In this document: positions 21,401 to 64,000 of the stretch, in pieces
How the letters are laid out: every line of letters begins with the position of its first letter
Numbering within the stretch: the first letter of the stretch is position 1
Source: Candidatus Uhrbacteria bacterium RIFOXYC2_FULL_47_19
Lineage (GTDB): Bacteria > Patescibacteriota > Patescibacteriia > SG8-24
Reading direction: 5' to 3'
Length of the DNA: 64,000 nt
NCBI GenBank assembly: GCA_001791745.1
Contig: MGFG01000020.1
Coordinates: 10,712 to 74,711 of the forward strand
Made by a program: the position numbers and the translations under genes
The notes under the pieces: model-generated
Databases searched by the model: none
Seen by the model: the letters and a program-made list of their open reading frames with translations, nothing else
What the model was told of the DNA's origin: nothing

Positions 21401-23960
21401 CACTGTTTCCGGTACGGTGACCTCGGGTGGTACACCAGTATCTGGCGCCTTTGTCCGGCTCATGGGTAACAACACCAACAATGAGGTGATGACTGGTGTC
21501 GACGGCACTTACAGCATGAAGGCCCCGTCCTGCGCCACGGCAGGTTGTTACACACTTAAGGCCTTCGCACCGAGCATTGGCGAGTTCCCGCCGCTCGCAG
21601 CCTTCAGTGTGACTAGTGACACAGCTGGCAAGGACTTTACACTTGCCGCACCTCGAACCTTGACCATAACTTTTTCCGCATCGGTCGCTCGCGGTTTCGT
21701 CGATATGTTCGCCACGAATGGTTCAGGTGCGCGCATCGACGTCTCTAATTCGACGGTTGCCACGTTGACCCTACCGGATGGTAATTATCGGGTTCGTGTG
21801 GACGTACCTGGAACGGCGATCGGTCCGTCTAATATATCTGGCGACGGTTACAACAGTACCACTGGTGTGTTCACAGTTTCGGCGGCCAACACTGCTCTGA
21901 CAGTCACATTGCCGACTCGTCGGACCATCACTGGTAAAGTGACTGACAGCACGGACAACATTGCCAATGCTTGGGTCGAGATTGTCAATCCGACTACCGG
22001 TGTCCACTTTGGTACGCAGACCAATTCGACCGCCGGTCCGGATACTAACTTCAGTTTCAGCGTGGCTGATGGTACTTACTTCATCAATGCGATGAAGCCC
22101 GGGTACTTCCGACAGCCGACTACGATCATTGTCGGAGCTGACACCACGACCCAGACTCTGATTATGACTGCAGCCACAACTACCATTGCCGGACAGGTAC
22201 TGATCGGCGCAACTGGTGCACCCAACTCTTTCGTCCGTGGTGAAAAGATGGGTGGTGGCTTCTCCGGTACTCAAGCCGATGCTAACGGTAACTATGTACT
22301 ACCAGTCGATTCTGGAGAGTGGAAGATTTACGCTGTAGCTGAGGGTTATCAGGAGGCCGGTTACGCCAGCAATCCGATCGACGTTAGTAGTGGTTCGGTA
22401 ACGGGTAAAAATATTACCCTCACCACAGCCGTCAACATGGCCTCACCTAGGTCCAGACCGATCACACCATCCTCGGGTGGAACCATCGACGACCAAGACT
22501 CCGGTCTGAGACTCAATGTGCCGGCCAACGCCTTGGGCACATCTAACTCATCCGGAACCTTAACAGCTAGGGAAACCAACAACGTCCGCTCTACTGATAC
22601 TGCCTACCTGGTCATGGTCTACGACTCGCAGACCGAGACTTACGTTCCGGCAGCCAAGGAACTGTCGGCCACAGATAGCGATGGCAATCCGATTACCAAT
22701 CTTGAGGGTTCGGTCAGTTTGGAGATGGACTACACCATCGCTGAGCTGGCAGCCACTCGGTCAGCGCTCGACTCGTCGATTGATACTCGGACCGAGGCAG
22801 ATATGCTGACCATGGCTTACTGGGATGCGACCAATCAGAGCTGGACACCGCTCCCTAGCACGGTGACTTACCGTGATTCCGATGGGGACATTGTCAACGA
22901 GCCGGAGGAGGACCTATCGAATGTCTCGATCGTTACGGTGTCGGCGACCACAAACCACTTCTCGCTCTATGCCCCGATCGTTTCGACTGATCCGTCAGCA
23001 CCGAGCACTCCGTCTGGTTTGGCAGCGAGCGCAACCAGCACCTCTCAGATAAATCTGAGCTGGACACAGACTTCCGGTGCTACTGGTTACGACATTTATC
23101 GGAGCACCACCGTGGGTGGCACTTATTCTCGTCTGGGTAGCGAGCCGACCGTCAGTTCCGGTTCGACGGTCACCTACAGTGACACTGGTCTCTCGGCCTC
23201 GACGACCTACTATTATAAGATTTCGGCGATCAACGCGAACGGTGAGTCGGCGTCGACATCTGCAGTCAGTGCCACAACCAGTAGCGCAGGTGGAGGCGGC
23301 GCAGGTGGAGGTGGCGGTTCAAGCGGTTCGGTTATTCCGCCAACTACCACACCGGTCACGGATGCGTCCGACCCCGACAGTTTCGTTGATAACTCATCTT
23401 CATTCCCGACCGGAACACATGAGCGTGTTGCTTACAATGAGGCCGAAATGGCGGCTCCGTCTTCAGACACTACTGGAGTCGGTGTCTACAGCTCTGAAGT
23501 AGCAATCTTCAATACACCAACCATCGATGTCGATAAGGGTATTTTGCCTCCACCAGCCGACGTCTGGTTACCTTGTGTCGGCGGCGGTCTGATCAAGACC
23601 CAGGATGGTTCGGCTGTCTACTACTGTGGCAAGAATGGACGACGCTACGTCTTCCCTCATCAGAACATTTACTCGACCTGGTACGGCAATTTCGACAGTG
23701 TCGAGTCAGTTCTAAATGAAGACCTAGCTGCAGTGCCATTGGCTGGCACCGTCACCTATCGTCCGGGCGTCAAGATGGTTAAGATTCAGTCCGATCCCAA
23801 GGTTTACGCTGTGTCTAGAAACGGTCTACTTCGCTGGGTGACCAGTGAAGAGATCGCTACTGAGCTTTATGGTCAGAATTGGAATCGACAGATTGATGAT
23901 GTAAATCCGGCCTTCTTCTTCTCCTACACGATCGGTGATCCGATCGAGGCAGCGGAGTAA
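15420..23960 (+). CDS. Giant secreted/surface protein (2,846 aa) with Ig-like, carboxypeptidase-regulatory-like and FN3 domains
   Basis: The N-terminal signal peptide has a hydrophobic core followed by AMAAS. Multiple SbsA/Big-type Ig-like repeats are present, such as PxVxxxxPxxGSxDVPVDRRVVVSFSDAMADDTI. CarboxypepD_reg-like units are present, such as TISGRVTDGTSIVQGASVYAY...SGNYTL. An FN3 domain is visible at LSWTQTSGATGYDIYRS...YYYKISAINANGES, followed by a Gly-rich linker. The C-terminal repeat module is shared with the 4494..6182 gene product. Confidence 0.85.
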   Translation: MKLSPFLKRVSRRPAETLLTLVLVIASSGLGSLIAPLPAMAASTITVSTSGLINGGFPGAPIPASSPASAVLKLSVTASSALQTLNSVTVNFSGTGLVQADLADIATDDSSGVALYDDEGGTAGNFDGTDSVITLAASPDWTGETTNITLTPATPVPLISGTPVIFYVAIRTSALLVNDHRIVASVLANGVVTSDGSGPATTFNAFELRADTAPAQIVSVGGFVGSASVNVRFNKPVQRVGGGSLIAASFTYVDGGGAAQTISSVAHTPGQDFATLTMSAVLDAGDIDGTPATIAAASSAIADMGGNVIGTDAVEMASAIEISTSTIPTAIIGTTYTTISPLVAFSAIGGTSPYIFESAGEPDTEVLTNAGLSLVDDGGTYKITGTVLSVPGSYPLYIRATDSAGTPQEAVRRYNLNVGTSAGAVPGVTSVVPGGAPLGASSLAVAITGSNTHFSGSSTIQFISGGSADANVTATISSSTTTTLNLSVSVAGGATVGPHDVRVTTGAEIVEMPGGFGVFPAGDSGLNLQSPTDAATGISIPPTFNFSPSTNPSAATYRVTLKSTSNFSGAALWDYAFPKPADAENSNGSHCNLTGCNVNYGAGSFRIITQPTPLEPNTTYYWQVRTYSQAPSAVSDAVAPLEGTPVRGFTTISSVMDIMPPNIMHRPVFQTTASTDLTLLARVDDNFASPTSTPALTTTVNYCVGVDCDPGTGTQASGTSIGNGFFTFTIPGASVGIAGTIVRYYLGASDGTNTAIFRDMDETPFRVTSIAAGVGTITGSVVNDSDECPEGIQGATVFAEGTGFMTTTDGSCEYTLSGLPTGIYDIVALKTGYADRIINGIPAGSTSIVFSLPMGFGGGFGGDGTRPHVMFTGPGENSTGIPGGDSYFKVFVAFDKPMSQSSITDTGNLTINEINPATGELTNITSKGDWDYYASSAGVDRVPPASNMAVFSLSQVGCDGSPCTLGDGKTIAVIVTDSATDTAGNSVMGNQPDGSFSFTFSTGTTFSGSFGEGEVFGSGEFIPPHVIGMTPPPGSLDVPVDRRVVVSFSDAMADDTIGTYLLKSYIKLYSVSGVTETDVSSLISATTLDSAKRNATLTLTGSLAASTRYRLKVLGGAKAATGLTVGPPESSSAVMFTGEFRTGTGTDVGIPTVNGTFPDNTATNVPVNLNAVSIGFSRDMDMSTISTSTVYLSIGSTAVNGSVEYRAAERTAYFVPRSALTASTTYTINVTTGAQALNGTAIATAVARTFTTGSADVLAPSIQFGNADDFSLAVTFSEPMNASRATDTINFTASVLKPANYVLKYATMGEDSSAGTVLTVPAAATFSYDQVTNTVKIAGYHADAIDPATLRGKELYVAITGVKDLSGNSITTDDGANTARMMILNSATTQGALGPMGMTGDSFSDQGGFTPDNFDSGTFGFAPQAEVRPFNTMPGQLTIYGIRLPISRQIPASGAVVVTFPIGFDVSAARQDVNSPMRQDLNGPGTGNVTFKCATAGAPTGASCSGTANADDAGVAQGGLAGDGVVVDTASRSVKIYLSAATNVEGHDFLTIDIAGIRNTTVPKDMNTSGYTADIKTKNGTTLLETATSMPFFIQSGGTGSFTLGGTITATGNVSSGTMQVYLMSPLTGPLETTSTNFSGGETATYSFTGLPAGEFMISTDQLVLIDAAEYVGKANPERIGLTANKTYNFTMASASSGGTVVTVNLTGPANEPLDVFAGSPTGFRVKQVTLNGGGTGSTTLNLPNGEWNIGVGPQTPKGFSGPPPAPSYLPPRNKQATIANPVCTVDGTVGCTIAFALTTSDKTIRGLVKDGSGKVMANAEVFAYSPNGGFGTNATTATNGAFTLNVVSGSYVVGAFIPGMPTSKEVPVVVTDHATTYLLIDGSSTAITPAAAATSFILKVAKPDYTISGRVTDGTSIVQGASVYAYRTNGPGHADVMTDSSGNYTLYVGAGTWNVGAFLPQYGRLSEQSVTVSTANVTSINFSPSQTGTGTFYTVSGTVTSGGTPVSGAFVRLMGNNTNNEVMTGVDGTYSMKAPSCATAGCYTLKAFAPSIGEFPPLAAFSVTSDTAGKDFTLAAPRTLTITFSASVARGFVDMFATNGSGARIDVSNSTVATLTLPDGNYRVRVDVPGTAIGPSNISGDGYNSTTGVFTVSAANTALTVTLPTRRTITGKVTDSTDNIANAWVEIVNPTTGVHFGTQTNSTAGPDTNFSFSVADGTYFINAMKPGYFRQPTTIIVGADTTTQTLIMTAATTTIAGQVLIGATGAPNSFVRGEKMGGGFSGTQADANGNYVLPVDSGEWKIYAVAEGYQEAGYASNPIDVSSGSVTGKNITLTTAVNMASPRSRPITPSSGGTIDDQDSGLRLNVPANALGTSNSSGTLTARETNNVRSTDTAYLVMVYDSQTETYVPAAKELSATDSDGNPITNLEGSVSLEMDYTIAELAATRSALDSSIDTRTEADMLTMAYWDATNQSWTPLPSTVTYRDSDGDIVNEPEEDLSNVSIVTVSATTNHFSLYAPIVSTDPSAPSTPSGLAASATSTSQINLSWTQTSGATGYDIYRSTTVGGTYSRLGSEPTVSSGSTVTYSDTGLSASTTYYYKISAINANGESASTSAVSATTSSAGGGGAGGGGGSSGSVIPPTTTPVTDASDPDSFVDNSSSFPTGTHERVAYNEAEMAAPSSDTTGVGVYSSEVAIFNTPTIDVDKGILPPPADVWLPCVGGGLIKTQDGSAVYYCGKNGRRYVFPHQNIYSTWYGNFDSVESVLNEDLAAVPLAGTVTYRPGVKMVKIQSDPKVYAVSRNGLLRWVTSEEIATELYGQNWNRQIDDVNPAFFFSYTIGDPIEAAE

Positions 23961-27641: not shown

Positions 27642-27675
27642 GTTTCTCTTGATAAGGCTATTATGTTTCCGCAAT

Positions 27676-28242
27676 ATGCCAATCCAAAAAGTCTCCAAGA
27701 ATCGACTACTGCTACATGCCTGCTGTGCGCCGTGTAGTATTGCGGTTATTAATGAATTAAGAGTTGAGTATGAGCTTTACGTGCTTTTCTTTAACCCCAA
27801 TATTCATCCTGAGGCCGAATATCTAAAACGTAAAAGTGAAGTGGTTCGGGTTTGTCGAGAGTGGAAAGTATCCATGATTGATTTAGATTATGAATCAACA
27901 CTCTGGGAGGAATTAGTTGCACCAGTGTCTCAAAAAAAGGAAGGTGGCCCTCGCTGTTCAACTTGTTTCCGTTTACGTTTAGCTCGAACTGCAGATTATG
28001 CCAAGGAACATGGATTCGTTTATTTTGCCACAAGCTTAACTATGGGTCGACGCAAGGATTCAACTGTGATTAATGCTATCGGGCGGACTATTGCAGTACA
28101 GTTTGGATTAAAGTTTTTGGACACTAATTGGAAGAAAGGTGGACGATGGGAGACAGGTCGTCGATTGACTGAGGAATGGGGGATTTATCGGCAGTCCTAT
28201 TGTGGTTGTAGATTTTCGTTGGAAGAGATGGCTAAGCGTTAA
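27676..28242 (+). CDS. queH: Epoxyqueuosine reductase QueH (DUF208)
   Basis: The sequence reads LLLHACCAPCS...FFNPNIHPEAEY...CSTCF...YCGC, which is the QueH Cys-motif pattern. The start is at MPIQK. Confidence 0.8.
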   Translation: MPIQKVSKNRLLLHACCAPCSIAVINELRVEYELYVLFFNPNIHPEAEYLKRKSEVVRVCREWKVSMIDLDYESTLWEELVAPVSQKKEGGPRCSTCFRLRLARTADYAKEHGFVYFATSLTMGRRKDSTVINAIGRTIAVQFGLKFLDTNWKKGGRWETGRRLTEEWGIYRQSYCGCRFSLEEMAKR

Positions 28243-30337: not shown

Positions 30338-31060
30338 TTAGAAATATGGTCGTTCTTGAGAGTCTTTGACTAAGTCAAAGGCCTCCTCAGCAGTGTCGAC
30401 AATTTTTACAATATCTAAGTCTTTTTCTTTTATATATTCGTTAGATAGTAAGTCTTGTCGAATCCAGCTGAACAAGCCTTCCCAATACTTGCGATCGATT
30501 AGGACGATCGGTATTGGCGCCATCTTACCAGTTTGGATTAGAGTGATCAGTTCAAACATTTCGTCGAGTGTGCCGAAGCCACCAGGAAAGAAAAGATAGG
30601 CCTGGGACGAGGCCGACATCATTACTTTGCGAGTGAAGAAATAATAGAAACCCTTGCCATGTTTAACGTACTTATTAGTGCGTTGTTCCATCGGTAGTTG
30701 GATGTTTAGTCCAACTGACTCGGCACCAGCTTCGAATGCACCGCGGTTAGCCGCTTCCATAATACCTGGACCTCCGCCGGTGATAATGGTGAAGCCAGCC
30801 TCACCCAGTAGTCGTGCCAGCTTACGTGCTGATTCGTAGTCTGGATGCCCTTCAGTTACACGAGCTGAACCAAAAAAGGTAACTTCTCGTTTGAGATCAG
30901 CTAAGAATTCGAAACCCTCAGTGAACTCGGCCATGATGCGAAAAATTTTCCAACTAGCACCCTCACGAAAATCTGGTACTTGAGGTAGAGGTACCTCGTC
31001 TGTTCCTGGGATTTTTCTTTCTTTGTGTTCAGTGCCTTTGGGTTGTGTTTCGTCGATCAT
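30338..31060 (-). CDS. LOG family protein (TIGR00730; cytokinin riboside 5'-monophosphate phosphoribohydrolase-like)
   Basis: VTFFGSAR...TGGGPGIMEAANRGA...PGGFGTLDE fits the PGGxGTxxE LOG signature. Confidence 0.85.
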   Translation of the reverse strand: MIDETQPKGTEHKERKIPGTDEVPLPQVPDFREGASWKIFRIMAEFTEGFEFLADLKREVTFFGSARVTEGHPDYESARKLARLLGEAGFTIITGGGPGIMEAANRGAFEAGAESVGLNIQLPMEQRTNKYVKHGKGFYYFFTRKVMMSASSQAYLFFPGGFGTLDEMFELITLIQTGKMAPIPIVLIDRKYWEGLFSWIRQDLLSNEYIKEKDLDIVKIVDTAEEAFDLVKDSQERPYF

Positions 31061-51302: not shown

Positions 51303-51470
51303 CTTCTATATATAATAAGAAGGTCCGAATACGGACGCGCTCAGTCGGGCGCGTTCGTCATTTATCAGGATTTGAGACTCCAAAACAACTATTTTAAGCT
51401 TGAAGCATGGACGGTTTGGCTTTTATGGGTATATATTGAGGCCGTCAGTCACGGATTTATTAGAACCTAC

Positions 51471-54281
51471 ATGTCATTCTTACATCGAATTTTTGGCGAT
51501 CCCAATGAGAAAGTATTGGCGGAGATGAATCCCCGAATAGAGGACATCAACGCATTGGAAGAGGAAATTAGTCAACTAGGACCGGAGGCAATTCGGGATC
51601 GGTCAGTCGATCTTAAACGACGGGTGGCAATTGGAGTGTCTTTGGATGAGATTCTACCTGAGGCCTTTGCACTCTGTCGTGAGGCAGCCAAGCGCACGCT
51701 CGGTCAACGTCATTACGACGTCCAATTAATGGGCGGTATTGTGTTACACAATGGGCAGATCGCTGAGATGCGGACTGGTGAGGGTAAGACTCTAACAGCA
51801 ACTTTAGCTGTTTATTTGAACGCATTATCTGGCAAAGGCGTGCACGTGGTGACAGTTAATGATTATCTGTCGCGTCGTGATGCAGCTTGGATGGGTCAGG
51901 TCTACCATGCACTCGGTTTGAGTGTGTCCTGTGTTAATCATCAGACGGCTTATGTTTACGATCCAGACTGGAAAGTACCGGAACAGACGACTGAATTAAC
52001 CATGGAAGATTTAGCGGAGGCTTCGGAAAAGGAAGAAGGGGGAGCTGTGGATCAGAAGCGCGATGCAACCGGTTCATTCCAAGTCGAAATGGATTACCTT
52101 CGTCCGGTCGGACGAAAAGACGCCTATTTGGCGGATATCACTTACGGTACCAATAACGAGTACGGTTTTGATTATTTGCGTGACAACATGGCCGTTCGTC
52201 CGGAACAGAAGGTTCAACGTCCGCTGCATTATGCCATTGTTGATGAGGTTGACTCGATCCTGATTGATGAGGCTAGGACGCCACTCATTATTTCTGCACC
52301 AGCCGAAGAGGCGGCAGATACCTACTACAAATTTGCAACTTTGGTTAAGCCTCTACAAGAGGACGTAGACTTCAATCGTGACGAGAAAATGAAGGCTGCA
52401 AGTTTCACCGAAGAGGGACAGAATCGAGTTTCGCGCGAATTGGGCTTTGACCCTTGGGCCGACAATGATACACGGACTATTTTTCATCTTGAAGCCGCGT
52501 TGCGTGCCGGCAAAATGTATGAGATTGACCGTGATTACGTAGTTAAGGATGGCGAGGTGATTATTGTTGATGAGTTTACTGGTCGGTTAATGAATGGTCG
52601 ACGCTACAGTGAGGGCCTACATCAAGCTATCGAAGCTAAGGAAGGAGTGGCTATCCAACGAGAGAGTCGAACACTTGCTACTGTCACTTTCCAGAATTAT
52701 TTTCGCATGTACGAGAAGTTGGCCGGTATGACCGGTACGGCCGCGACTGAGGCTGAAGAGTTTTCTAAGATTTACAGTCTAGAGGTCACAGTAATTCCAA
52801 CTAATCGACCAACTTGCCGTGAGGATTTACCAGATCGAATTTTTAAAAACGAAAAAGGTAAGTTCGCCGCGGTGGTGGAGGAAATTCGAGCTAGGCACGA
52901 AAAAGGACAACCGGTATTGGTTGGTACAGCTTCAATTGAGAAAAATGAGATACTAGGGAAATTGCTCGAGCGTGAAGGTATACCGCATGAGTTGTTGAAT
53001 GCTAAGAATCACGAGCGTGAGGCCAAGATAATCGCTCAAGCTGGTCGGGTTGGGGCGGTAACGATCGCTACTAATATGGCCGGGCGTGGTGTGGATATTA
53101 TTTTAGGTGGTAATCCGCCAGATTCAGCAGCGATTGAAAAGGTACGTGAATTAGGTGGATTGTTTGTTATTGGTACCGAACGACATGAGTCACGACGTAT
53201 TGATAATCAGTTGCGCGGCCGTGCCGGACGACAAGGTGATCCGGGCAGTACTAGGTTCTTTATTTCGCTCGAGGATGATTTGATGCGGATTTTTGCTTCG
53301 GACAGCATGCGCGCTATGATAGACCGTCTTGGTTTGCCGGATGACTTACCAATCGAGAATCGAATCGTTAATCGCTCCATTGAGAGTGCTCAGAAGAAAG
53401 TTGAAGGACACCACTTCGATGTTCGTAAGCATCTCTTGGAGTACGACGATGTACTAAATCGGCATCGCGAGGTTTTTTATCGCAAACGTGATGAGATGTT
53501 GGCTTTGTCGCCAGATGATTCAATTGGTATGCGTCAGCATACGCTTGAAATGGTGGAGTCGGAGATTGAGCGGGTAGTTTTATTCCATACTTCAGCCGAG
53601 GACGAGAAGGCCTGGGATTTGAAGGAAATCTACGAGGTTGTCGACACTATTTTTCCAATGTCGACTGAGGAACGTGAAAAATTAACAGAAATTAGTCGTG
53701 AAGCTGGTTCTAAGAAAGAGGATGCCGAAGCTCGAACCAAGATCATTGAATTTTTGATGTCGGTGGCCGGTATAGAATACGATAAATTGGAGTCTAGAGT
53801 TGGTGCAGCTCTCGCTACAATAGGTGGTGGTAATAGCCATTTTCCTGACATTGTTCGTGGCATGATCTTACGTGCTATGGATATGTTATGGGTTGAGCAT
53901 TTGGACGCTATTGATCATATGCGAACCGGTGTTGGGTTGCAGGGCTATGGTCAGCGTGATCCATTGGTTGAGTACAAGAGGGAGTCTTTTCGTATGTTCA
54001 ATGAGTTCATGGCTATGATCGAAAAGCAGGTCGTTTACTCGTTGTTCAAAATGAGCGTGGTGGCCCAGCGGCCACAGACTGTCCAGCCGGCCAAGTCGCT
54101 TTTGGATCAGAAAGGATTAAAAATGTCAGGTGCTCAAAAATCGGCCGATGGTGGGGTGGTTGAGTCCGGTGCTGGAGCGGCTAGCGACAAGATTGGTCGC
54201 AATGACCCTTGTCCTTGTGGGGCAAGCAAGGAGGATGGTACTCCGGTCAAGTATAAGAAGTGTCATGGCCGGGAGGTTTAA
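51471..54281 (+). CDS. secA: Preprotein translocase ATPase SecA
   Basis: MRTGEGKTLTATL is the Walker A motif. The DEAD-like, PPXD and HSD domains are present. The C-terminal Zn motif is CPCGASKEDGTPVKYKKCHG. The ATG at MSFLHRIFG is the start; the upstream part of the track ORF begins with a TTG. Confidence 0.9.
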   Translation: MSFLHRIFGDPNEKVLAEMNPRIEDINALEEEISQLGPEAIRDRSVDLKRRVAIGVSLDEILPEAFALCREAAKRTLGQRHYDVQLMGGIVLHNGQIAEMRTGEGKTLTATLAVYLNALSGKGVHVVTVNDYLSRRDAAWMGQVYHALGLSVSCVNHQTAYVYDPDWKVPEQTTELTMEDLAEASEKEEGGAVDQKRDATGSFQVEMDYLRPVGRKDAYLADITYGTNNEYGFDYLRDNMAVRPEQKVQRPLHYAIVDEVDSILIDEARTPLIISAPAEEAADTYYKFATLVKPLQEDVDFNRDEKMKAASFTEEGQNRVSRELGFDPWADNDTRTIFHLEAALRAGKMYEIDRDYVVKDGEVIIVDEFTGRLMNGRRYSEGLHQAIEAKEGVAIQRESRTLATVTFQNYFRMYEKLAGMTGTAATEAEEFSKIYSLEVTVIPTNRPTCREDLPDRIFKNEKGKFAAVVEEIRARHEKGQPVLVGTASIEKNEILGKLLEREGIPHELLNAKNHEREAKIIAQAGRVGAVTIATNMAGRGVDIILGGNPPDSAAIEKVRELGGLFVIGTERHESRRIDNQLRGRAGRQGDPGSTRFFISLEDDLMRIFASDSMRAMIDRLGLPDDLPIENRIVNRSIESAQKKVEGHHFDVRKHLLEYDDVLNRHREVFYRKRDEMLALSPDDSIGMRQHTLEMVESEIERVVLFHTSAEDEKAWDLKEIYEVVDTIFPMSTEEREKLTEISREAGSKKEDAEARTKIIEFLMSVAGIEYDKLESRVGAALATIGGGNSHFPDIVRGMILRAMDMLWVEHLDAIDHMRTGVGLQGYGQRDPLVEYKRESFRMFNEFMAMIEKQVVYSLFKMSVVAQRPQTVQPAKSLLDQKGLKMSGAQKSADGGVVESGAGAASDKIGRNDPCPCGASKEDGTPVKYKKCHGREV

Positions 54282-54807: not shown

Positions 54808-56256
54808 TTGTCGGGAAACAATAAATTGTATTCTATGGAGAGTTTTTTTTCGCAAGAGCATTTTCGGTCACTGCCAAAAGAATCCTTGCAGGAAGTTTAT
54901 GAAAATAAACGTGTAGAACTACCATTTATCCCAAAAGATTTGGCATTTTTTGTTGATACCACTCACGGTAATTTACAACTACGTGTACTGCCGTATCATC
55001 ATCGTAGTGCGGATTTGGGTATTTCTTTACCCATAGTTGAAAGAGGAAAGAGAGAAAATAGAGTTTACTGCCAAGTTGATGTTAAGGGTGGTGGTTTTTT
55101 GTTTCCTAAAAGTTTTGAATCTAAGAAGGACGGCATAGTAATGGGTCAACTAGATGATGCCGAGGAAGTTTATTTTATGCCGGACTCTAAAGAAACGCCT
55201 TGGAGTTATGATTTTCTAGGGTTGATGGATGAGAGGTTGGCTATGAGAGTTACCGAGGTGATCGAGATGTTGGCTGAGACGGGCATGAGGACGGAGGCTC
55301 TGGCCGGTGTTTATAGGACTGATCGGGTAGTGATTAACGGACAAGATGTTTCTATAGATGACCTCAAAGAGAAAGTCGTCGATCAGTTACAACAAGCCAT
55401 CAGTGCTGCCAACAGTGATCATGAGAAGTCTGAATTGGAAGGTAAGATAGAAGATCTGAAGGAAAATTTTGATCCGGTAATAGTTATTCGTCTGATGCGT
55501 TCGGTGTTGCGCATTAGGGATATGAAGGAAGTTATGGGTGATATTGGTCAGGAAGGGGTAGTTCAGATGATTTCTGAGGCCTGTAAGAATTTAAACATTG
55601 AAGCTAAGGCTCTTGGCCACTCGGACCGATTTGATGCCTCGACTCCGGAAGGGCGTGAGAAGTGGGTAAAATTTGTCTGTTTTTGGTACGGGAAAAACGC
55701 CGGTATTATGCATCGCGAGGGGGTAGTCCATCAGTTTCTACACATGGGTAACCTGACTTTGGCAGGGGAGGTGGTCGATATGGATTCCGTCGGACAGTTG
55801 CTGACACACAAGAAGTTTAGGGGTCGACCAGAGAACAAGGAGAAATGGATCAAGCGTGGTGATCGTAATGGTGACGGGACACCGTTCAGCGAACGGTCAT
55901 TCTTTAGGTCTACCGATGACGGTTGTGTTTTTATTAGTCCCGAAGTGGGCCTGCATCAGCAACCAGATGAACGTTTTGGTTTACCCAAGGCTTTATTAAA
56001 GGACTTACGTGATTCATGCTTTTCTATACATTTGATGTGTAAAAATATTTTGACTAAATTGCCAGGTATGAATGTTTCTGAGTTAAGACAGAAGTTGGCT
56101 GATGATTTTGTTCGTGGGTACAAGGATGGATTAGACGGCTCAGAGCCATTTGATAAGATTGGTATTACTGGGGACAGGTTGATATCTGTTTGCACTGAAA
56201 TATCCGAGAGCGTTATTGCCAGAGGTGAGTATTATGCGCCAATTCCTATCGATTAA
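54808..56256 (+). CDS. Hypothetical protein (482 aa)
   Basis: A soluble protein. The segment GIMHREGVVHQFLHMGNLTLAGEVVDMD loosely resembles the catalytic H-x-D...N...D loop of phosphotransferases. This resemblance is weak. Confidence 0.55.
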   Translation: MSGNNKLYSMESFFSQEHFRSLPKESLQEVYENKRVELPFIPKDLAFFVDTTHGNLQLRVLPYHHRSADLGISLPIVERGKRENRVYCQVDVKGGGFLFPKSFESKKDGIVMGQLDDAEEVYFMPDSKETPWSYDFLGLMDERLAMRVTEVIEMLAETGMRTEALAGVYRTDRVVINGQDVSIDDLKEKVVDQLQQAISAANSDHEKSELEGKIEDLKENFDPVIVIRLMRSVLRIRDMKEVMGDIGQEGVVQMISEACKNLNIEAKALGHSDRFDASTPEGREKWVKFVCFWYGKNAGIMHREGVVHQFLHMGNLTLAGEVVDMDSVGQLLTHKKFRGRPENKEKWIKRGDRNGDGTPFSERSFFRSTDDGCVFISPEVGLHQQPDERFGLPKALLKDLRDSCFSIHLMCKNILTKLPGMNVSELRQKLADDFVRGYKDGLDGSEPFDKIGITGDRLISVCTEISESVIARGEYYAPIPID

Positions 56257-56301
56257 GTGTCGAGTTTTTAATAAAAATTCATAATTTATCAATCCTGAAT
56301 A

Positions 56302-59300
56302 TTGGCCTTGCGGTTTATGAACAGAAAACCTTTTGAGAGTGGTGGACGTGGTGAGCAAGAAAGAGAGCATATTGATTTTTCTTTGCAAGCGGAAGAAAAG
56401 AATCTTACTCCTTTGCAGTTGATGGTTTTGGAGGAAGTAAAGTTTGTTCTTGGTAATTGGGGTGAAGCGGAAAGAATTGATAATGAAGCCATCAATGGAG
56501 ACGAGGTGTTTCGTGTTTTTGATATTGAGAAATTAACTAGTGCGATTGATGAGGCTAAACACAGGTTTGACGTTAACAATATTCCAGAAGCTTTCGTCAA
56601 TAGGTGTATTAAAGAGATAGTTGAGAATCTCATTGATTGGCATGAGTATAGGGCATCATTTCTTTTGTCTAAAGAATTTTCTCTGACTTCTCAGGACTTT
56701 GGTTCAGATATTTTTTTTGAAAGTTTAGTCGATCAGGCTCATGAATTTATTTTGTCTTCTCTAGAAGAAGGTAGGTTGAATGAAGCCTTGAATGTAATAG
56801 AAGGTCTTGATTCATCAGATGACATCATCAAGACGCGTGAATTTGAGCTTTCCTTATGGAAAGGAATAGAAATTGAATTGTGTGTAGGGGATATTGATTC
56901 TGTACTACAGGTCGTTGATAAGTTAGGGATCAGAGAGGCTTTATCAGCCTCGGAGGATGCAAAAAGATGGGCAATGTGGGGGGTAGAGTATTTGCATGAA
57001 AATTTTGGATTATCGGAGGAAAAAATCTTGAAGATAGCAAATACTTTCAATATAAGAAATGAGATAGCAGTAAGAATTATATCTTTGGAATTGTTTCAGG
57101 ATGATTTTTTGCGCGATGTTGAGTCTTTTTTAATCTCGGTTGATTTTTTAGGGGTAGATTCTGAAGTTATTAAGTCATCCAAAGAGGTACGACAAGAGGC
57201 TTTAGCAAAAGCCTTACTGATTTTTACGAAAAATGATGAAGATAATAATGCAACCAAAAGAAAAGCTTTGGCTACGATTGACTATCTGGGAATAGATGAA
57301 CAGGAAAAGAAGAATTTCTTATCTAAACTGGTCGAATCTGGTGATCTCGATATAGCAAGGCAAGCCTACAATGATTTTGGTCTCAAATGGGATGACCTAA
57401 CTAAGAGCAAAGAGCTTCAAGAATTAGGCTGGTCAGGTGTGCTTTCTAATTTGAGTTTCACTAGATTCTCTGACTCACTAATGATGGCCGACGAGTTTTC
57501 TCTTCGTGAGCGTCTCCTCAGCTCACCGGAAGCTAGACAGAGCGCACTAATGGGTATGGTAAATGCTTTTTTAAATCGGGGTGAGTCAGTCGGCATAGAA
57601 TTCATTCATAAGTTCGCAGATCTTATCGGTGTAGAATGGAAGACCTTTGCTTCATCTGAAGATGTACAGAACGCAGCTTGGGATGGAATGATGTGTTGTT
57701 TGAGACAACATTATCAGGATTCAATATTAACCATCGCCGACGAGTTTTCTCTTGGTGAGCGTCTCCTCAGCTCACCAGAAGCTAGACAGAGCGTGTTAGT
57801 TGGTATGGAAAATCATTTTTATTGGCAAGGATCTGTATCAAACGGCATAGAATTCATTCATAAGTTCGCAGATCTTATCGGTGTAGAATGGAAGACCTTT
57901 GCTTCATCTGAAGATGTACAGAACGCAGCTTGGGATGGGATGATGCAAAACTTAAAACATTTGGCTAATGATTTAAAGTCAATATTAACCATCGCTGACG
58001 AGTTTTCTCTTCGTGAGCGTCTCCTCAGCTCACCGGAAGCTAGACAGAACGCATTGAATAAAGCTTTTTTGTGTCTTCGTAGTTTTTCTTACAAAAAGTG
58101 TCTTGATATAGTGAATTTTTTTGAATTAGGTCAGGAGGTAGTTTCTACAAAAGGGGGTGAGGATTTAGTATTAGAGGTTTTTTTCTACATCTTGAGAGCT
58201 GATGATGTTTCTAAAGCCTCCAGTTTTATTAGCAGTTTTAAACCCCTCGCTAGTCGAAGTAAGAGGTTTTTACGAATTTTTGGCAATTTAGGACTTCAAA
58301 TCCATTGGAATATTTTGCAGGATATTTATGACGGTGTAATTTCGTCCGACGTTGCTGAGTTGGGTGTAAGTAGAGTTGGAGAATCCGGCGTTCTTGAATT
58401 AGAAGATTCTTTTCGTAGAGAAAAACATAATTTTTTAAAAAAAGATATTTCATCTGATGAAAGACTTAAGGTTTTGATCAAAAATCCAATTTTTAGAATT
58501 TTTTTACAGTCGTTAACTAGATTTAACGATTCTGAATACGGCAGACATGATGACGTGATTTGGGATAGTATGGTGGACGATTTTAATAGGAGGCTTCACG
58601 CCGGACAATTGAAACCCCTTCCTGTAGAGTATGTCCCTAGCGGGAAATTAGAGATTAAAAAGATAGGTCGATCACAAGAGTCCAACAAAGAGAAAAAGTT
58701 TGTGCATGATAAAAATTTTCTTAAACGTTACGGCCAGCTGGTCCATGAAATACAAGAAGCACAGGCAAAGATGAAAGAAAAATTCTTTGGTGGACTCACT
58801 GTTGATTTTCTTAGGGGGTTAACTGAGATTATCGAAAATAAGCTTGTTGACTTAGAGAAGGTAGAGGATGGTTTAGTTGCCCAAGGCGATTTGGAACGGC
58901 CAGTATTGGTTGATGTCGGTAGTAAGATCATCTTCCTTAGAGATATCTCTGAGGCCTTACATGAGATATTGCGTACACCGGAAATGGATTTAAAAGGTGA
59001 CTTTATCGGTCGTATAGCAAATGATTTGCGAAAATCCATATGTCAAGAGTCCTCTAAATTAGAGGGTGAAAAAGAAGCTTGGAAGATAAAATTAGATTCG
59101 GACGATCGAATGGTAAACGAAAAGGCCAGTTTTGTTCTTAAGAATATTGAAAAAAAAATAGGAGATTTGAATCGACTTACATCCCTGCTCAACAATGATC
59201 GGCCTAATTTTGATGAATTAATTTCTCGTTTTGTTGGTTTTGACACATCTATAAAGAGTTTACGTCAAGGTTTAATATTTCTGTCATTTTTAATGAACCC

Positions 59301-60078
59301 ACGTTTATTAGAAAATGATTATTCCAATTTGGCGGAAGGTATAGATAGGCAGGACGTATCAGAGGATGAAATATCTAAAGTCATAAATTTTATCGATCAG
59401 GTAACCAATCGTGAAACCTTCGGTGTATTTTTGGACGATAAAGAAAAATGCAAGATTCTTGATTCACTACTCTCAGTTTCTAGTTTAAAACAGGAAATCA
59501 ATCGGTTGCAGGAGGCCAAGTCTCCAACAGGTAAGACTACATCTGTAGCTTTTATCCCATCTCGCGACCTTAAGACGGAAATTTCAGGGCATATGGCCGA
59601 TGCTTGTTGGGCTAATAAAGAAAAATCTATTCTTCAGTCTCATCCTAATTTTATTTCAGTGACTTTTGTTGGTAATCCAGAAAGTGAGGTTAATGAACGT
59701 GTGGTTGGAGCCTGCATACTCATTGAAACCAAGACTAGAGATAATGCCCCTATTATAGTTATTAGAGGATTTAATCCTATTGAAAATTTTACAAATTCAG
59801 TTGATCAGGAGTCTTTTTTCAGTCAATTTGTCAATTGGGTTAGGCCGATAGCTAAGTTGCGTGGATGTAAATTAGCGATGGTTATAGACGGAGAACGTGG
59901 CCTCGCGGCCAGTAATCGACAGGTTACTTATGATTATCTTGCTAGTCTCAGATCATCTTTGGAGAAAGTAACCTTGGCATCGAGCGTAGACACTAGTTTT
60001 AATGGATATTATATTGTCGACGATACCTACTTGATTCCTGATGATCTGTTTCAAGCAAAAAACCATCAAAAAAGTTAA
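56302..60078 (+). CDS. Large hypothetical protein (1,258 aa) containing about 2.3 near-identical 85-aa tandem repeats
   Basis: A long alpha-helical-looking ORF. The LTIADEFSLRERLLSSPEARQSAL...GIEFIHKFADLIGVEWKTFASSEDVQNAAWDGMM repeats are very similar at the DNA level. Confidence 0.65.
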   Translation: MALRFMNRKPFESGGRGEQEREHIDFSLQAEEKNLTPLQLMVLEEVKFVLGNWGEAERIDNEAINGDEVFRVFDIEKLTSAIDEAKHRFDVNNIPEAFVNRCIKEIVENLIDWHEYRASFLLSKEFSLTSQDFGSDIFFESLVDQAHEFILSSLEEGRLNEALNVIEGLDSSDDIIKTREFELSLWKGIEIELCVGDIDSVLQVVDKLGIREALSASEDAKRWAMWGVEYLHENFGLSEEKILKIANTFNIRNEIAVRIISLELFQDDFLRDVESFLISVDFLGVDSEVIKSSKEVRQEALAKALLIFTKNDEDNNATKRKALATIDYLGIDEQEKKNFLSKLVESGDLDIARQAYNDFGLKWDDLTKSKELQELGWSGVLSNLSFTRFSDSLMMADEFSLRERLLSSPEARQSALMGMVNAFLNRGESVGIEFIHKFADLIGVEWKTFASSEDVQNAAWDGMMCCLRQHYQDSILTIADEFSLGERLLSSPEARQSVLVGMENHFYWQGSVSNGIEFIHKFADLIGVEWKTFASSEDVQNAAWDGMMQNLKHLANDLKSILTIADEFSLRERLLSSPEARQNALNKAFLCLRSFSYKKCLDIVNFFELGQEVVSTKGGEDLVLEVFFYILRADDVSKASSFISSFKPLASRSKRFLRIFGNLGLQIHWNILQDIYDGVISSDVAELGVSRVGESGVLELEDSFRREKHNFLKKDISSDERLKVLIKNPIFRIFLQSLTRFNDSEYGRHDDVIWDSMVDDFNRRLHAGQLKPLPVEYVPSGKLEIKKIGRSQESNKEKKFVHDKNFLKRYGQLVHEIQEAQAKMKEKFFGGLTVDFLRGLTEIIENKLVDLEKVEDGLVAQGDLERPVLVDVGSKIIFLRDISEALHEILRTPEMDLKGDFIGRIANDLRKSICQESSKLEGEKEAWKIKLDSDDRMVNEKASFVLKNIEKKIGDLNRLTSLLNNDRPNFDELISRFVGFDTSIKSLRQGLIFLSFLMNPRLLENDYSNLAEGIDRQDVSEDEISKVINFIDQVTNRETFGVFLDDKEKCKILDSLLSVSSLKQEINRLQEAKSPTGKTTSVAFIPSRDLKTEISGHMADACWANKEKSILQSHPNFISVTFVGNPESEVNERVVGACILIETKTRDNAPIIVIRGFNPIENFTNSVDQESFFSQFVNWVRPIAKLRGCKLAMVIDGERGLAASNRQVTYDYLASLRSSLEKVTLASSVDTSFNGYYIVDDTYLIPDDLFQAKNHQKS
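57481..58080 (+). repeat. Tandem direct repeat (period about 255 bp, about 2.3 copies) inside the 1,258-aa gene
   Basis: Stretches longer than 90 nt are identical between copies (gcatagaattcattcataagttcgcagatcttatcggtgtagaatggaagacctttgcttcatctgaagatgtacagaacgcagcttgggatgg). Confidence 0.8.
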
Positions 60079-60090
60079 AAAAGTCGTGAC

Positions 60091-60501
60091 ATGAAAATTA
60101 GTCAATATTTAGATGAATATTCGTCTGGTGAGCGGGTTAAATTGCATTACGTATTTGATGAAGTACGTGAATTACTAATTGAGGTGATTAGATTTAATCC
60201 TGATGGCGTAAATGAGGAATTCGAAGATGTATTATTTTTTGTCCAATTATGGTTGTTTTGGCGGTTTGGGATTGATGGTGAGACTTGGCGATTAACCAAG
60301 CATTCCGTTGAAAAATTTATGACCCGTCGTCCTATTTGGCGTCGTTTGTATCGAGAGGTGGGTCTACCAGAAACCATTTCTAATTTTTGTGGTAATTGCA
60401 ACAAAGTTGAGAAGGTGATCAAGCAGTTAAGCCTCTTTGGCATCGATCGCAAAATGGCTATAGCTGCCCATCGAAAAATCATCTTAGGAGATAGATCATG
60501 A
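60091..60501 (+). CDS. MazG-like all-alpha nucleoside triphosphate pyrophosphohydrolase (putative)
   Basis: LHYVFDEVRELLIEV...EEFEDVLFFVQLWLFWRFGID resembles the MazG/HisE EExxE...E-ADVL...GID pattern. The stop overlaps the next start (ATGA). Confidence 0.5.
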   Translation: MKISQYLDEYSSGERVKLHYVFDEVRELLIEVIRFNPDGVNEEFEDVLFFVQLWLFWRFGIDGETWRLTKHSVEKFMTRRPIWRRLYREVGLPETISNFCGNCNKVEKVIKQLSLFGIDRKMAIAAHRKIILGDRS

Positions 60502-61043
60502 AGATTGATACAAAGACAGAAGTAGTTTCGTCCGAAGGAGGTTGTACTTCAAAAGAGGCCTCTATGGTAGTTCATTGGATAGAGGAGGCAGCTGCGGTCG
60601 CTCGGCAGGCTACCTGCCGGCGGGTTTTGTGCGGGGCGATTATTGTGAGCGGTGAGGAAGTGATCGGTCAGGGATTCAACTTGCCACCCGGCAACGACGA
60701 GCAGGAACGACGTTGTCACCGGCATAAGTCATCCTACGATCTAAAGATCACAGACAAGACTTGCTGCGTACACGCCGAGTAACGGGCGGTAATGGACGCA
60801 CTGGCTCGACATCCAGATCGACTGGCTGGTTCAACTATGTATTTTGTTGGTTTGCTGCCTGATGGTAGTCCACGCTCGCAGGGTGGTGAGATCCGTCTCT
60901 ACTGTACGATCTGCACCAAGATGATGCGTGATGTAGGTATCGCCAAGTACGTACTGCAAACTCCGGACGGATCGTCAGTCTCCTATTCGGCGGATGAGTA
61001 TCTGCGTCTATCTTATGAATACAGTCATCAATTTACTAACTAA
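60498..61043 (+). pseudogene. dCMP/cytidine deaminase-fold gene (ComEB-like) interrupted by an in-frame TAA
   Basis: CRRVLCGAIIVSGEEVIGQGFN...C-x-x-x-x-C...CCVHAE is followed by TAA at 60780-60782. The same frame continues RAVMDALARHPDRLAGSTMYFVGLLPDG...LYCTICTKMM (a C-x-x-C Zn ligand). The stop falls at the residue after the HAE motif. Confidence 0.6.
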
Positions 61044-61054
61044 TCTCATTTGGT

Positions 61055-61471
61055 ATGCGAATTGGGGTGGTTGGCAGCATGCATTTTACAGAGACGATGT
61101 TGGAGATGCGGGATAGACTGATCGATCTCGGTCATGATGCTTATTTGACCGGGTTGGCCGCACCGTTTATTGGTAAGTCAGACAAGGAAAAAGAAAAGAT
61201 TAAGATTGAACAAAAGACACATCAAGACGCGATTCGTGATTTTTGGAGATTGATGCAAGGAGGAGATGCAATTTTAGTCGTTAATCCCGATCGTCATGGT
61301 ATTGTTAACTATATAGGAGGAAATACTTTTTTGGAGATGGGGTTTGCTCACGTTTTAGATCAGAAGATATTTTTACTTAATCCAATTCCCGACATACCGT
61401 TTTATCGTACTGAAATTGAGGCTTTTCAACCGATTATTCTAAATGGCGACCTGGATCGTCTAATCGTATAA
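61055..61471 (+). CDS. Nucleoside 2-deoxyribosyltransferase / DNPH1(Rcl)-like protein (putative)
   Basis: IGVVGSMHF...GGDAILVVNPDRHGIVNYIGGNTFLEMGFAHVLDQKIFLLNP matches the ADAVVA...G-x-x-TAFE-x-GYA...KPV pattern of the NDT/DNPH1 fold. Confidence 0.5.
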   Translation: MRIGVVGSMHFTETMLEMRDRLIDLGHDAYLTGLAAPFIGKSDKEKEKIKIEQKTHQDAIRDFWRLMQGGDAILVVNPDRHGIVNYIGGNTFLEMGFAHVLDQKIFLLNPIPDIPFYRTEIEAFQPIILNGDLDRLIV

Positions 61472-61561
61472 AAAATTTATTGCAATTAATTTATCGTTGG
61501 GGATGACATCGATCTTCGGAGCTGATAGCATACAAGACATCTTCAACTAAACCCGACCATC

Positions 61562-62005
61562 ATGTGGGACATCAATGAGATACATCGTCGTCTTAAAGAA
61601 AAGAAAAAAGAACGTCGTGATTTAAATCGTGTCGTCAAGGATGAGTTGTCCCAGAACGCCGAGTATCAGCAAGTTATTGAAGAATTGAAAACGCTCAAAG
61701 AGCGTAAGAAATCGATTGAGGGGACGATTAAGATGTCCTGCTCATCTGAGGTCGACCGCATGGACGTACTGAAAGACGAAATTGCTGCCGATACCGAATT
61801 ACTTTCCGATTTAGCACTCAATATGTACGTTGAAGGCAAGACTGTTGAAATTGTCGAGGATGAAACGCGTTATGTACCGCAGTTTACTGTTCGGTTCAAA
61901 AAAGACGACACACCGGTTTCCGCAGCCATGGCCGAAGCAGCTGCAGCAGCACGAGCCGAGTCGCACCAGGAACGTACTTTCGCTCCATTCGTCCAGCCGG
62001 TTTGA
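61562..62005 (+). CDS. Hypothetical coiled-coil protein
   Basis: A 147-aa charged helical ORF with an Ala-rich C-terminus. Confidence 0.45.
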   Translation: MWDINEIHRRLKEKKKERRDLNRVVKDELSQNAEYQQVIEELKTLKERKKSIEGTIKMSCSSEVDRMDVLKDEIAADTELLSDLALNMYVEGKTVEIVEDETRYVPQFTVRFKKDDTPVSAAMAEAAAAARAESHQERTFAPFVQPV

Positions 62006-62030
62006 ATAAAATAATCAATATATAAAGACC

Positions 62031-62064
62031 AAGGTGGATTTACGGATTCACCTTTCTGTTTTTT
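62031..62064 (+). terminator. Rho-independent terminator
   Basis: AAGGTG-gatttacggatt-CACCTT is followed by TCTGTTTTTT. Confidence 0.55.
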
Positions 62065-62216
62065 ATCGATTTGTATTTAAGTGAGCGGTATTAACCACAT
62101 TGGCTGTTCTAGTTGCCAAAATAAGCATATTTAATTAGGATGATGGGCAGTTGTGAATAATCTGATGCGGACAGATCAATCTGTTACGCTCGTTTTTTCC
62201 GAGTCTTTACTCGAGT

Positions 62217-64000
62217 ATGAGCATGAAACCTTTTCTTAATGGCTTACGCCGTACATCTCATGGGTTCTGGAATGCCCTACTATCGCTCTTGCTTCCAACT
62301 ACACCTCGTGGTCGGATTAGACGAGCGGTGTTTTTCATTGTTTTATTACTAGTCTTCTCCAGTGCGTTGAGCTATCCAAAGTGGTGGAATTCGTCGGTTG
62401 ACCGAATCAATGGTTGGTCCGAGAGCACTCTTGGATTGGATCTACACCTTCCTCAGTTTTGGGAATTGCCATTTGTTCTTGGTTTGGATCTGCAAGGTGG
62501 AACACATTTGGTCTACGTTGCCGACATGGCTAACATTCCTGATTCAGAGCAGGATACGTCGATCGCTGGTGTACGAGATGTCATTGAGCGACGGGTCAAT
62601 TCTTTTGGTGTTTCGGAACCGTTAGTCCAGACTAATAAATCCGGTAATGAGTGGCGGTTGATTGTTGATTTGGCCGGTGTATCGGACATTTCTGAGGCTA
62701 TTAAACTGATTGGAGAAACTCCAATTCTTGAGTTTAAAGAACAGAACAATGAGCCACCGCGAGCGTTGACTGCTGAAGAACAAGCTGATTTGGAAGCAAG
62801 TAACACGGCTGCAAAATCTAAGGCCGATGATCTGTTAGCACGGGCGTTAGCCGGAGGAGATTTTGCTACCTTGGCTACTGAGAATTCAGACGATTTATCT
62901 ACTAGGGGTGTTGGCGGCAATCTTGACTTTCAATCTAAGTCGGGTCCGTACTCTGAGTTAATCGATCAATTATTGAGTGGTGACATGTCTGAGGGGCAGG
63001 TGGTTCCTCGGTTACTAGAAGATTATCGTGGTTACCATATTGTTCGTTACGAGGAACAGCGAGAGTCTGGCCAGGAGATGAAAGCTTCACATGTTTTGAT
63101 TTGCTATGCCGGGGCTGCACAATGTGAATCCGAACGTAGTAAGGATGAGGCTTTGAGTTTAGCTCGGGAGTTGGCTGGACAGGCCACACCAGAAAACTTT
63201 GCTCAATTGGCTCAGGACAATTCTTCCGATGTTGGCACTGCTGAGAATGGTGGTGATCTAGGTTGGTTCCAGCCAGGAATCATGGTTAAGCCTTTCGAAG
63301 ACGCGACACAGGCTCTGGAGGTTGGGAGTATTACAACTGAACCAGTTGAAACTGACTTTGGTTTTCATGTTATCTATAAGACTGATGCTCGACCGATTAG
63401 TGAATATCGTCTGAGTCACATTCAGATCAACAAGAAGACTGCAGCAGATTATGTACCGCCGGCTGATCAGTGGAAGAACACTCAGCTTTCTGGTAAACAG
63501 CTCAAACGTTCAGTAGTGCAGTTTCATCCGCAGACTAATGAACCACAGGTTGCTCTGGAATTTGATTCCGAAGGCAAGGATTTGTTTGCGGATATTACCG
63601 GACGAAATGTTGGTCAGCCAGTAGCCATCTTCCTTGATGGAGAGGCTATTAGTATCCCGACCGTCAATGAGGTCATTTCTGGTGGTGAAGCGGTTATTAG
63701 TGGTAATTTCTCTATTCAAGAAGCCAAGTTGCTGGCTCAACGATTAAATGCTGGTGCGTTACCAGTACCAATTCATCTTGAAACACAGCAGTCGGTTGGT
63801 GCCACTCTAGGTAATGATTCACTTTATTCGTCACTTCGGGCTGGATTGATTGGCTTTTTAGTAGTAGTGCTGTTCATGTTACTGTACTACCGTTTGCCTG
63901 GACTAATTGCGGTTGTGGCTTTGTGCATTTACACAGCTGTCAACTTAGCTATCTATAAGTTGATTCCAGTTACTTTAACCTTATCGGGTATCGCTGGGTT
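62217..64000 (+). CDS. secD: Protein translocase subunit SecD with inserted tandem parvulin-like (PpiC) domains; 3'-partial at the window end
   Basis: No stop occurs in frame 0 from ATG 62217 to the window end; I translated this by eye. An N-terminal TM helix is followed by LGLDLQGGTHLVYVAD (SecD P1 head). A degenerate parvulin-like domain and a canonical one follow (ASHVLICYAG...GGDLGWFQPGIMVKPFEDA...FGFHVIYK). Then comes the SecD core: QPVAIFLDGEAISIPTVNEVISGGEAVISGNFSIQEAKLLAQRLNAGALP. This gene is not in the supplied ORF track. Confidence 0.8.
   Translation, partial: MSMKPFLNGLRRTSHGFWNALLSLLLPTTPRGRIRRAVFFIVLLLVFSSALSYPKWWNSSVDRINGWSESTLGLDLHLPQFWELPFVLGLDLQGGTHLVYVADMANIPDSEQDTSIAGVRDVIERRVNSFGVSEPLVQTNKSGNEWRLIVDLAGVSDISEAIKLIGETPILEFKEQNNEPPRALTAEEQADLEASNTAAKSKADDLLARALAGGDFATLATENSDDLSTRGVGGNLDFQSKSGPYSELIDQLLSGDMSEGQVVPRLLEDYRGYHIVRYEEQRESGQEMKASHVLICYAGAAQCESERSKDEALSLARELAGQATPENFAQLAQDNSSDVGTAENGGDLGWFQPGIMVKPFEDATQALEVGSITTEPVETDFGFHVIYKTDARPISEYRLSHIQINKKTAADYVPPADQWKNTQLSGKQLKRSVVQFHPQTNEPQVALEFDSEGKDLFADITGRNVGQPVAIFLDGEAISIPTVNEVISGGEAVISGNFSIQEAKLLAQRLNAGALPVPIHLETQQSVGATLGNDSLYSSLRAGLIGFLVVVLFMLLYYRLPGLIAVVALCIYTAVNLAIYKLIPVTLTLSGIAG

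Follow-up and report, generated by a model that had tools for sequence, protein, structure and literature searches.

In human cells, three enzymes of distinct classes act on deoxynucleotides one after the other: an all-alpha MazG-type dCTP pyrophosphatase, DCTPP1, yields dCMP analogues and feeds the dCMP deaminase DCTD (PMC11183266), and DNPH1, an N-glycosidase with the fold of the nucleoside 2-deoxyribosyltransferases (NDT), destroys modified dUMP, acting on hydroxymethyl-dUMP (hmdUMP) via a Y24/D80/E104 triad (PMC11183266; PMC10603095). We analysed a stretch of DNA of 64,000 nucleotides (nt), hereafter the window, which is a chromosomal piece of an ultra-small groundwater bacterium of the Patescibacteria, or Candidate Phyla Radiation (CPR), and whose genes g1, g2 and g3 belong to the same three classes and follow the same logical order (Table 1). 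The proteins of the locus coincide exactly with those numbered A2480_03260 to A2480_03280 in Candidatus Uhrbacteria bacterium RIFOXYC2_FULL_47_19. There are differences from the human route: the bacterial genes are adjacent, g1 is no orthologue of DCTPP1, nor g3 of DNPH1, g3 has neither the Tyr24 nor profile similarity with a protein of the DNPH1 type, the deaminase gene is a pseudogene, and the substrates of the window enzymes are predicted ones. We lean, with moderate confidence, towards reading the locus as a lineage-specific cluster for nucleotide-pool house-cleaning and salvage, the deaminase step of which is now lost.

In the proposed route, g1 would hydrolyse (deoxy)nucleoside triphosphates, probably non-canonical or surplus ones (e.g., dCTP analogues), to the respective monophosphates and pyrophosphate, and the intact form of g2 would turn dCMP-type products into dUMP-type products. 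The g3 protein, with Glu94 as nucleophile and through a covalent intermediate, would act on a (deoxy)nucleotide or nucleoside, cleaving off its base or transferring it, such that unwanted monophosphates would be destroyed and the sugar phosphate recycled. The deaminase step would have been lost recently by a CAG to TAA nonsense change, leaving only g1 and g3 able to act. The cluster lies in the interval between secA and secDF, which in Patescibacteria often houses genes of this kind. The analysis shows the gene structure, the stop codon, the family and fold assignments and the neighbourhood statistics, and we infer the substrates, the direction of the flux and any functional coupling of g1, g2 and g3; the three are real genes, backed by homologues and by an order that is kept in a relative at saturated divergence.

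The family of g2 was assigned from its joined translation, read across the internal stop described below, which aligns end to end with intact homologues of 160 aa with no frameshift and matches Pfam PF00383 with 39.8 bits (cut-off 25), the match spanning the stop. A profile of 45 intact g2 homologues (A6) has dCMP deaminases as its first matches, the group that includes ComEB; in the PDB the best ones are the enzymes of cyanophage S-TIM5 (4p9c, 3e-12), S. mutans (2hvv, 1.5e-9), human DCTD (2w4l, 2e-6) and T4 (1vq2, 1e-5), and TadA is a weaker match (3e-4 or worse). The search against PHROGs, informative for g2 only, likewise returned a dCMP deaminase family (1e-13). The protein carries the motifs CVHAE and YCTIC, whose residues C, H, A, E, C and C do not vary within A6; HAEQ is common to 4p9c and the g2 family, and the CxxC zinc ligands and an insertion from GxN to HAE are present as well. 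In contrast with the known dCMP deaminases, the family has GFN(S/L)PPG in place of the GYNG motif, g2 stays far under the cut-off of the NCBIfam ComEB equivalog (20.6 bits against 219), and the window copy is truncated. The 192 homologues form a distinct subfamily with a length of about 160 aa, spread over CPR bacteria and DPANN archaea, which lies closest to the dCMP deaminases. As homologues align only from about residue 23 onward, the start of g2 is ambiguous; the ATG at 60564 seems to fit their N-termini better than the ATG at 60498, which overlaps g1.

The relation of g1 to MazG and PRA-PH was approached by profile chaining. Alone, g1 scores 14.1 bits (E 0.057) with Pfam MazG (PF03819), below the gathering cut-off of 22 bits, and its clade is very rare, with only 6 close homologues among 5.8 billion proteins (E down to 1e-54). 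Single-sequence phmmer searches of the PDB with g1, g2 and g3 gave noise or weak matches only. With the profile of the close homologues (A3), an exhaustive search of 1.8 billion representative proteins yielded 116 proteins; two of those found, P0285 (E 3e-10) and P0295 (E 3e-8), pass PF03819 themselves with 24.9 and 26.9 bits, and among 82 g1-profile relatives MazG is matched in Pfam by 24 and PRA-PH by 5. The extended g1-family profile (A4) matches PDB 1vmg (2e-6), 2yxh (9e-6), 2p06 and 3cra, the MazG of E. coli. The acidic metal-binding signature ExxE...ExxD, common to g1 and the MazG and PRA-PH proteins (1vmg, 2yxh, 3cra), corresponds to E24/E27 and E43/D46, which show little or no variation in A3 and A4. 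Unlike those proteins, the g1 family has a conserved extra C-terminal half in which R79, W83, N102 and K108 are nearly invariant. Taken as profile evidence, this indicates that g1 is a divergent protein of the MazG superfamily (all-alpha NTP pyrophosphohydrolases), and pyrophosphohydrolase activity would be expected of it. Another protein found, P0249 (283 aa), combines a g1-family domain with a NUDIX domain at its C-terminal end; through this natural fusion the rare g1 clade is tied to nucleotide house-cleaning.

The g3 protein has no match in Pfam or NCBIfam, PF05014 giving no hit at E <= 1; the profile of its family (A1) finds no match among PDB sequences, and we found no description of the family in the literature. 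There are 4,452 homologues, nearly all of 137 aa, with about 70% identity and all labelled 'hypothetical', and in 21 sequences from different candidate phyla 58 of the 138 columns are invariant. The AlphaFold2 (AF2) model is good (predicted local distance difference test, pLDDT, 89.6), and its best Foldseek matches are 7o62 (NDT), 4jen (BcmB, a CMP N-glycosidase), 8of6 (YtoQ), 1s2d and DNPH1; the top seven comprise NDT, BcmB, YtoQ, PDT (purine deoxyribosyltransferase) and T. brucei NDT, at probabilities of 0.98-1.0. In addition, hhalign relates the g3 family to a neighbouring PF05014-positive CPR paralogue (95% probability, E 3e-8). With the superfamily of NDT, DNPH1 and BcmB-MilB (PF05014 and relatives), g3 shares, besides the flavodoxin-like fold, an N-terminal G-S loop and the motif T-x-x-E-x-G. 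The Glu of this motif, the invariant Glu94 within GGNTxxExG, is matched in alignments by the Glu of the motifs YEIG, IEIG and IEAG of proteins that pass PF05014, and in a joint alignment it takes the position of the DNPH1 nucleophile E104. Residue 62, which is acidic (E in most members, D in the window), and an invariant D58 both lie on the helix equivalent to that of the DNPH1 general acid D80, within one and within four alignment positions of it, respectively.

The features in which g3 differs from the PF05014 families are the missing direct Pfam match, a Gly in place of the catalytic Tyr, a cross-phylum conservation of about 70% and an invariant Lys-rich helical insert (K41, K46, K50 and K54), which could possibly act as a phosphate-binding lid. 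Membership of the DNPH1 family was rejected, as hhalign finds no similarity to a DNPH1-type CPR protein. The protein is predicted from model and alignments to have an NDT-like fold of the flavodoxin type that keeps the nucleophile Glu, and 'DNPH1-like' applies to the fold only. The UniRef label 'Maf-like protein' (UniRef100_A0A1F7WF60) was also discarded: Pfam gives no Maf match, and Foldseek finds no structure of a Maf protein. Some gene callers start g3 at Met9 (130 aa); the conserved N-terminus MRIGVVGS places the start at 61055. The same genome has a LOG-family gene (PF03641/SLOG; 30338-31060, reverse strand), a candidate nucleotide 5'-monophosphate nucleosidase; g3 is thus one of at least two NDT/SLOG-type enzymes in it, and therefore g3 is unlikely to be a general nucleoside-monophosphate nucleosidase and more likely to be specialised. 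The initial annotation had described the locus as MazG-like, dCMP-deaminase and nucleoside-2-deoxyribosyltransferase (DNPH1)-like genes. Set against profile searches, all three fold assignments are supported: for g1 by chaining only, to proteins that pass MazG and to MazG-type structures, with ExxE...ExxD kept; for g2 directly; and for g3 via the PF05014-positive paralogue, its structural matches agreeing and its proposed kinship with DNPH1 falling away.

The g3 family extends well beyond this organism. It was found in 477 species-level genomes, and two of its members lie on genuine DPANN archaeal contigs: L040 (4676-5098), which carries the small and large subunits of PolD and MCM, and L064 (5902-6414), which carries ribosomal protein S17e. 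The DPANN proteins are 65-68% identical to that of Uhrbacteria, as high as between CPR phyla, which implies inter-domain transfer and very strong constraint on g3. Neighbourhoods were counted in 80 species loci anchored on g3. A NUDIX gene stands within three genes of g3 in 19 loci; in 11 of the 80 an MTH1-like NUDIX gene (about 1e-47 to human MTH1) lies less than 900 nt from g3 on the same strand (e.g., L060, 6411-6872), the calls of the open reading frames (ORFs) for g3 and the MTH1/NUDT1-like protein abutting or overlapping by about 3 nt in five loci, and 11 more loci have another NUDIX gene nearby. Further neighbours identified by Pfam are PF05014 NDT genes, HD, HIT and DUF1653; by sequence reading only, there are also a cluster of three proteins of about 186 aa that look ITPase/Ham1-like, and CYTH-like proteins. 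SecA is near g3 in 10 loci, and SecDF is in 13; homologues of g2, too, are found just after secA or close to secD. Genes for nucleotide house-cleaning thus accompany g3 repeatedly.

The complete order, g1-g2-g3-g4, was found in one other genome, GCA_043825985.1 (L004), the closest relative, where g2 is intact. Synonymous sites are saturated between this genome and the window, yet the gene order is kept with tight spacing. There, too, the cluster is flanked by secA and secDF, and the interval from secA to g1 holds CYTH, a second CDA, DUF1653, NUDIX, an ASCH-like gene and NTPase_I-T. The fourth gene, g4, follows g3 in both genomes that bear the trio; its conservation among Uhrbacteria exceeds 90%, with no significant family match in Pfam or NCBIfam. 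The exact trio is lineage-specific, and a recurrent module is not supported, the combination occurring in only one other species among the 80 examined.

Several observations weigh against the cluster reading. The link of g1 to MazG is transitive, by profile chaining only: A3 alone has no match in the PDB, and the AF2 model of g1, though all-alpha, is poor (pLDDT 67.8), with nothing at E below 3 when used in Foldseek. For g3, the Foldseek TM-scores are moderate (0.47-0.58), the position of the catalytic Tyr (Y24 of DNPH1) is an invariant Gly4, and hhalign gives 0.3% probability with a DNPH1-type CPR protein of L038, itself a clear PF05014 member (E 6e-15). An identity of about 70% across phyla and into archaea is odd for a pool-cleaning enzyme and hints at another, more constrained role. 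In the g3-anchored set, g1 and g2 are absent near g3 in the 79 species other than the closest relative, and a search beside other g2 homologues found neither g1 nor g3, as one beside another g1 homologue found neither g2 nor g3. As the trio occurs in two species only and homologues of g1 and g2 otherwise stand alone, its functional coupling is weakly supported, and since g2 could be lost, the route, should it exist at all, is dispensable here.

Another account is one that we regard as possible though doubtful: three independent housekeeping genes may lie side by side in a variable slot with no pathway linking them, g1 as a general NTP cleaner, g2 as a supplier of dUMP for thymidylate and g3 with an unknown core function in CPR and DPANN. 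Besides the missing adjacency elsewhere, it gains from the places where the homologues do occur, one of g1 between secY and adk and those of g2 alone after secA, near a ribonucleotide reductase gene or in archaeal contexts; from the far wider spread of g3 than of g1 and g2; and from the loss of g2 without decay of g1 or g3. Independence does not easily explain, however, why order and tight spacing were kept in the relative despite saturated synonymous divergence, why all three genes are nucleotide-acting next to a slot that in the relative is full of nucleotide hydrolases, or why the recurrent pairing with NUDIX places g3 in nucleotide sanitation. We thus keep the house-cleaning and salvage cluster as the preferred reading.

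The loss of the deaminase step, which is part of the preferred reading, comes from the reading frame of g2. Across the internal stop the translation is TDKTCCVHAE*RAVMDAL, with the TAA directly after the catalytic His-Ala-Glu; relatives read HAEQRAVMDAL with CAG at that site, and Gln occupies the position in 106 of 115 homologues (92%). The identical TAA is found in two European Nucleotide Archive (ENA) scaffolds, L001 and L002; both derive from the aquifer study that yielded the window, share these genes with it and are 99.6-99.7% identical to it. In public records g2 appears as two separate fragments (A2480_03265 and A2480_03270, also HCC22097 and HCC22098), and the protein collection contains three distinct truncated N-terminal fragments, one with V43G and one without VIGQG, a piece of the IGxGFN motif that is otherwise conserved. 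No stop is commoner in the window than TAA, which ends 16 of 29 large ORFs and is therefore a true stop and not a case of recoding; an alternative genetic code was rejected on the same count. The ratio of nonsynonymous to synonymous substitution rates (dN/dS) against the intact orthologue of L004 is about 0.09-0.1 on both sides of the stop, and equally low values on both sides make the lesion a recent one. Because the stop falls at a Gln conserved at 92%, recurs in several independent assemblies, is accompanied by a variant without VIGQG and is the main stop codon of the window, we conclude that in this Candidatus Uhrbacteria population g2 has only recently become a pseudogene.

Could the split deaminase still work? 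This would take read-through of the TAA, reinitiation at the ATG at 60792 with assembly of the fragments, or a stop that arose as an artefact of assembly or consensus building from a mixed population in which an intact allele also occurs. The low dN/dS on either side, a conserved Met codon 10 nt past the stop, the CAG in the otherwise near-identical contig L003 and the breaks of the ENA scaffolds within g2, suggesting strain heterogeneity, all speak for such a possibility. Nevertheless, the break lies within the catalytic helix in a window whose main stop codon is TAA, the three truncated variants, one of them without VIGQG, are as expected for decay, and the low dN/dS mostly reflects divergence before the mutation; the intact segment of L003 is 26% divergent, so it is an allele of another lineage and not a corrected read. 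We consider a functional split enzyme very improbable and retain the pseudogene.

Some features of the assemblies around g2 may be described apart. The Logan contig L003 (SRR4389122) is 100% identical to the window over 60891-64000; between window 60752-60890 and L003 1-141, the stretch that closes the contig, 36 of 139 positions differ, mostly third codon positions, and CAG is intact in L003. Both ENA scaffolds have gaps of 10 N within g2. Judged by the divergence of L003 and these gaps, the deaminase gene seems to contain a recombination breakpoint or a mosaic of strains, unless the end of the contig is chimeric.

As to the layout, the initial annotation had proposed a coupled operon working in three steps. 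The reading frames of the three genes are as described there and the ATGA overlap between g1 and g2 is present; the spacer between g2 and g3 measures 11 nt (61044-61054) and not 12, and g2 is not one open gene, since the premature TAA had been overlooked. With the deaminase a pseudogene here, a working three-step operon is not supported. A scan for promoters and terminators remained at chance level and does not define an operon; a possible terminator lies downstream of g4 (62031-62054).

Table 1. Features of the g1-g2-g3 locus and its flanks in the window (position 1 is the first nucleotide of the window).
Feature	Coordinates	Strand	Description
secA	51372-54281		Upstream flank of the locus
Low-GC block	54808-60078	+	Two large ORFs (482 and 1258 aa); ends 12 nt before g1
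g1	60091-60501	+	136 aa; predicted divergent MazG-superfamily protein; A2480_03260
ATGA overlap	60498-60501	+	Stop of g1 and first possible start of g2, read from the sequence
g2, whole reading frame	60498-61043	+	Interrupted by TAA
g2, N-terminal fragment	60498-60782	+	94 aa; ends with CCVHAE and TAA; His and Glu of the HAE motif; A2480_03265
Premature in-frame TAA	60780-60782	+	Codon 95; conserved Gln codon (CAG) in relatives
g2, C-terminal remainder	60783-61043	+	Same frame; CxxC zinc ligands (YCTIC)
g2, annotated C-terminal ORF	60792-61043	+	83 aa; A2480_03270
g3	61055-61471	+	138 aa; predicted NDT-like fold; Patescibacteria/DPANN family; A2480_03275
g4	61562-62005	+	147 aa; coiled-coil-like; A2480_03280
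secD	Starts near 62223		Downstream flank of the locus; continues past the window end

Upstream of g1, the window departs from its surroundings: the GC content of the block that precedes the trio is 37-38% against 44-54% nearby, and the block takes the slot that in L004 is occupied by the nucleotide-hydrolase genes between secA and g1; it is probably an inserted island. Its two ORFs have no Pfam match, no PADLOC match and no informative PHROG match. The larger one contains a 252-nt tandem repeat (2.2 copies, 84% match, 57487-58053), and its length differs by assembly (1253, 1256 or 1258 aa). The initial annotation had also considered nucleotide depletion, and an anti-phage module of that kind, tied to these large proteins, might draw on the island adjoining the trio and on a weak match of the g2-family deaminase domain to the NCBIfam 'anti-phage dCTP deaminase', but the idea is barely tenable given that PADLOC has no match for six proteins including g1, g2, g3 and the two large neighbours, that the NCBIfam match is at domain level only (best E 2e-9, with a cut-off of 400 bits), that the setting between secA and secDF is a housekeeping one, that g3 resembles a core gene in hundreds of species, that the relative carries these genes but lacks the large ORFs, and that the deaminase is inactivated.

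Elsewhere the window also codes for MurC, MurB, DnaB, RecR, BipA, Era, GlyA, FolD and others, and a QueH gene lies at 27649-28242. An ORF of 2846 aa (15420-23960) has six CarboxypepD_reg domains, Big_5 and fn3 and is probably a giant surface protein. A scan of the window with Rfam found no RNA family.

The trio itself is modest, confined to one lineage and with a dead deaminase, and it serves as a natural experiment in which the deaminase step is dispensable; the most notable item, and the one worth following, is the g3 family. Unable to make nucleotides themselves, Patescibacteria and DPANN archaea depend on scavenging them. To our knowledge, how they keep modified or damaged bases out is poorly understood. 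Conserved at about 70% identity in these lineages and across the two domains, with an NDT/DNPH1-type Glu, repeatedly placed beside MTH1-like NUDIX genes and missed by Pfam and NCBIfam, g3 is a concrete, easily expressed candidate for a missing step of this salvage and sanitation. A bolder proposal, which we hold to be rather unlikely, is that g3 founds an undescribed Patescibacteria/DPANN family of (deoxy)nucleoside-monophosphate N-glycosidases that completes the sanitation of the pool, as a core adaptation of ultra-small symbionts, whose DNA has to be built from scavenged and often modified or damaged nucleotides. If this were true, g3 would irreversibly destroy the monophosphates released by MazG, MTH1-type NUDIX and ITPase enzymes and return (deoxy)ribose 5-phosphate to metabolism, and the cluster of g1, g2 and g3 would be what in bacteria corresponds to the human DCTPP1-DCTD-DNPH1 route.

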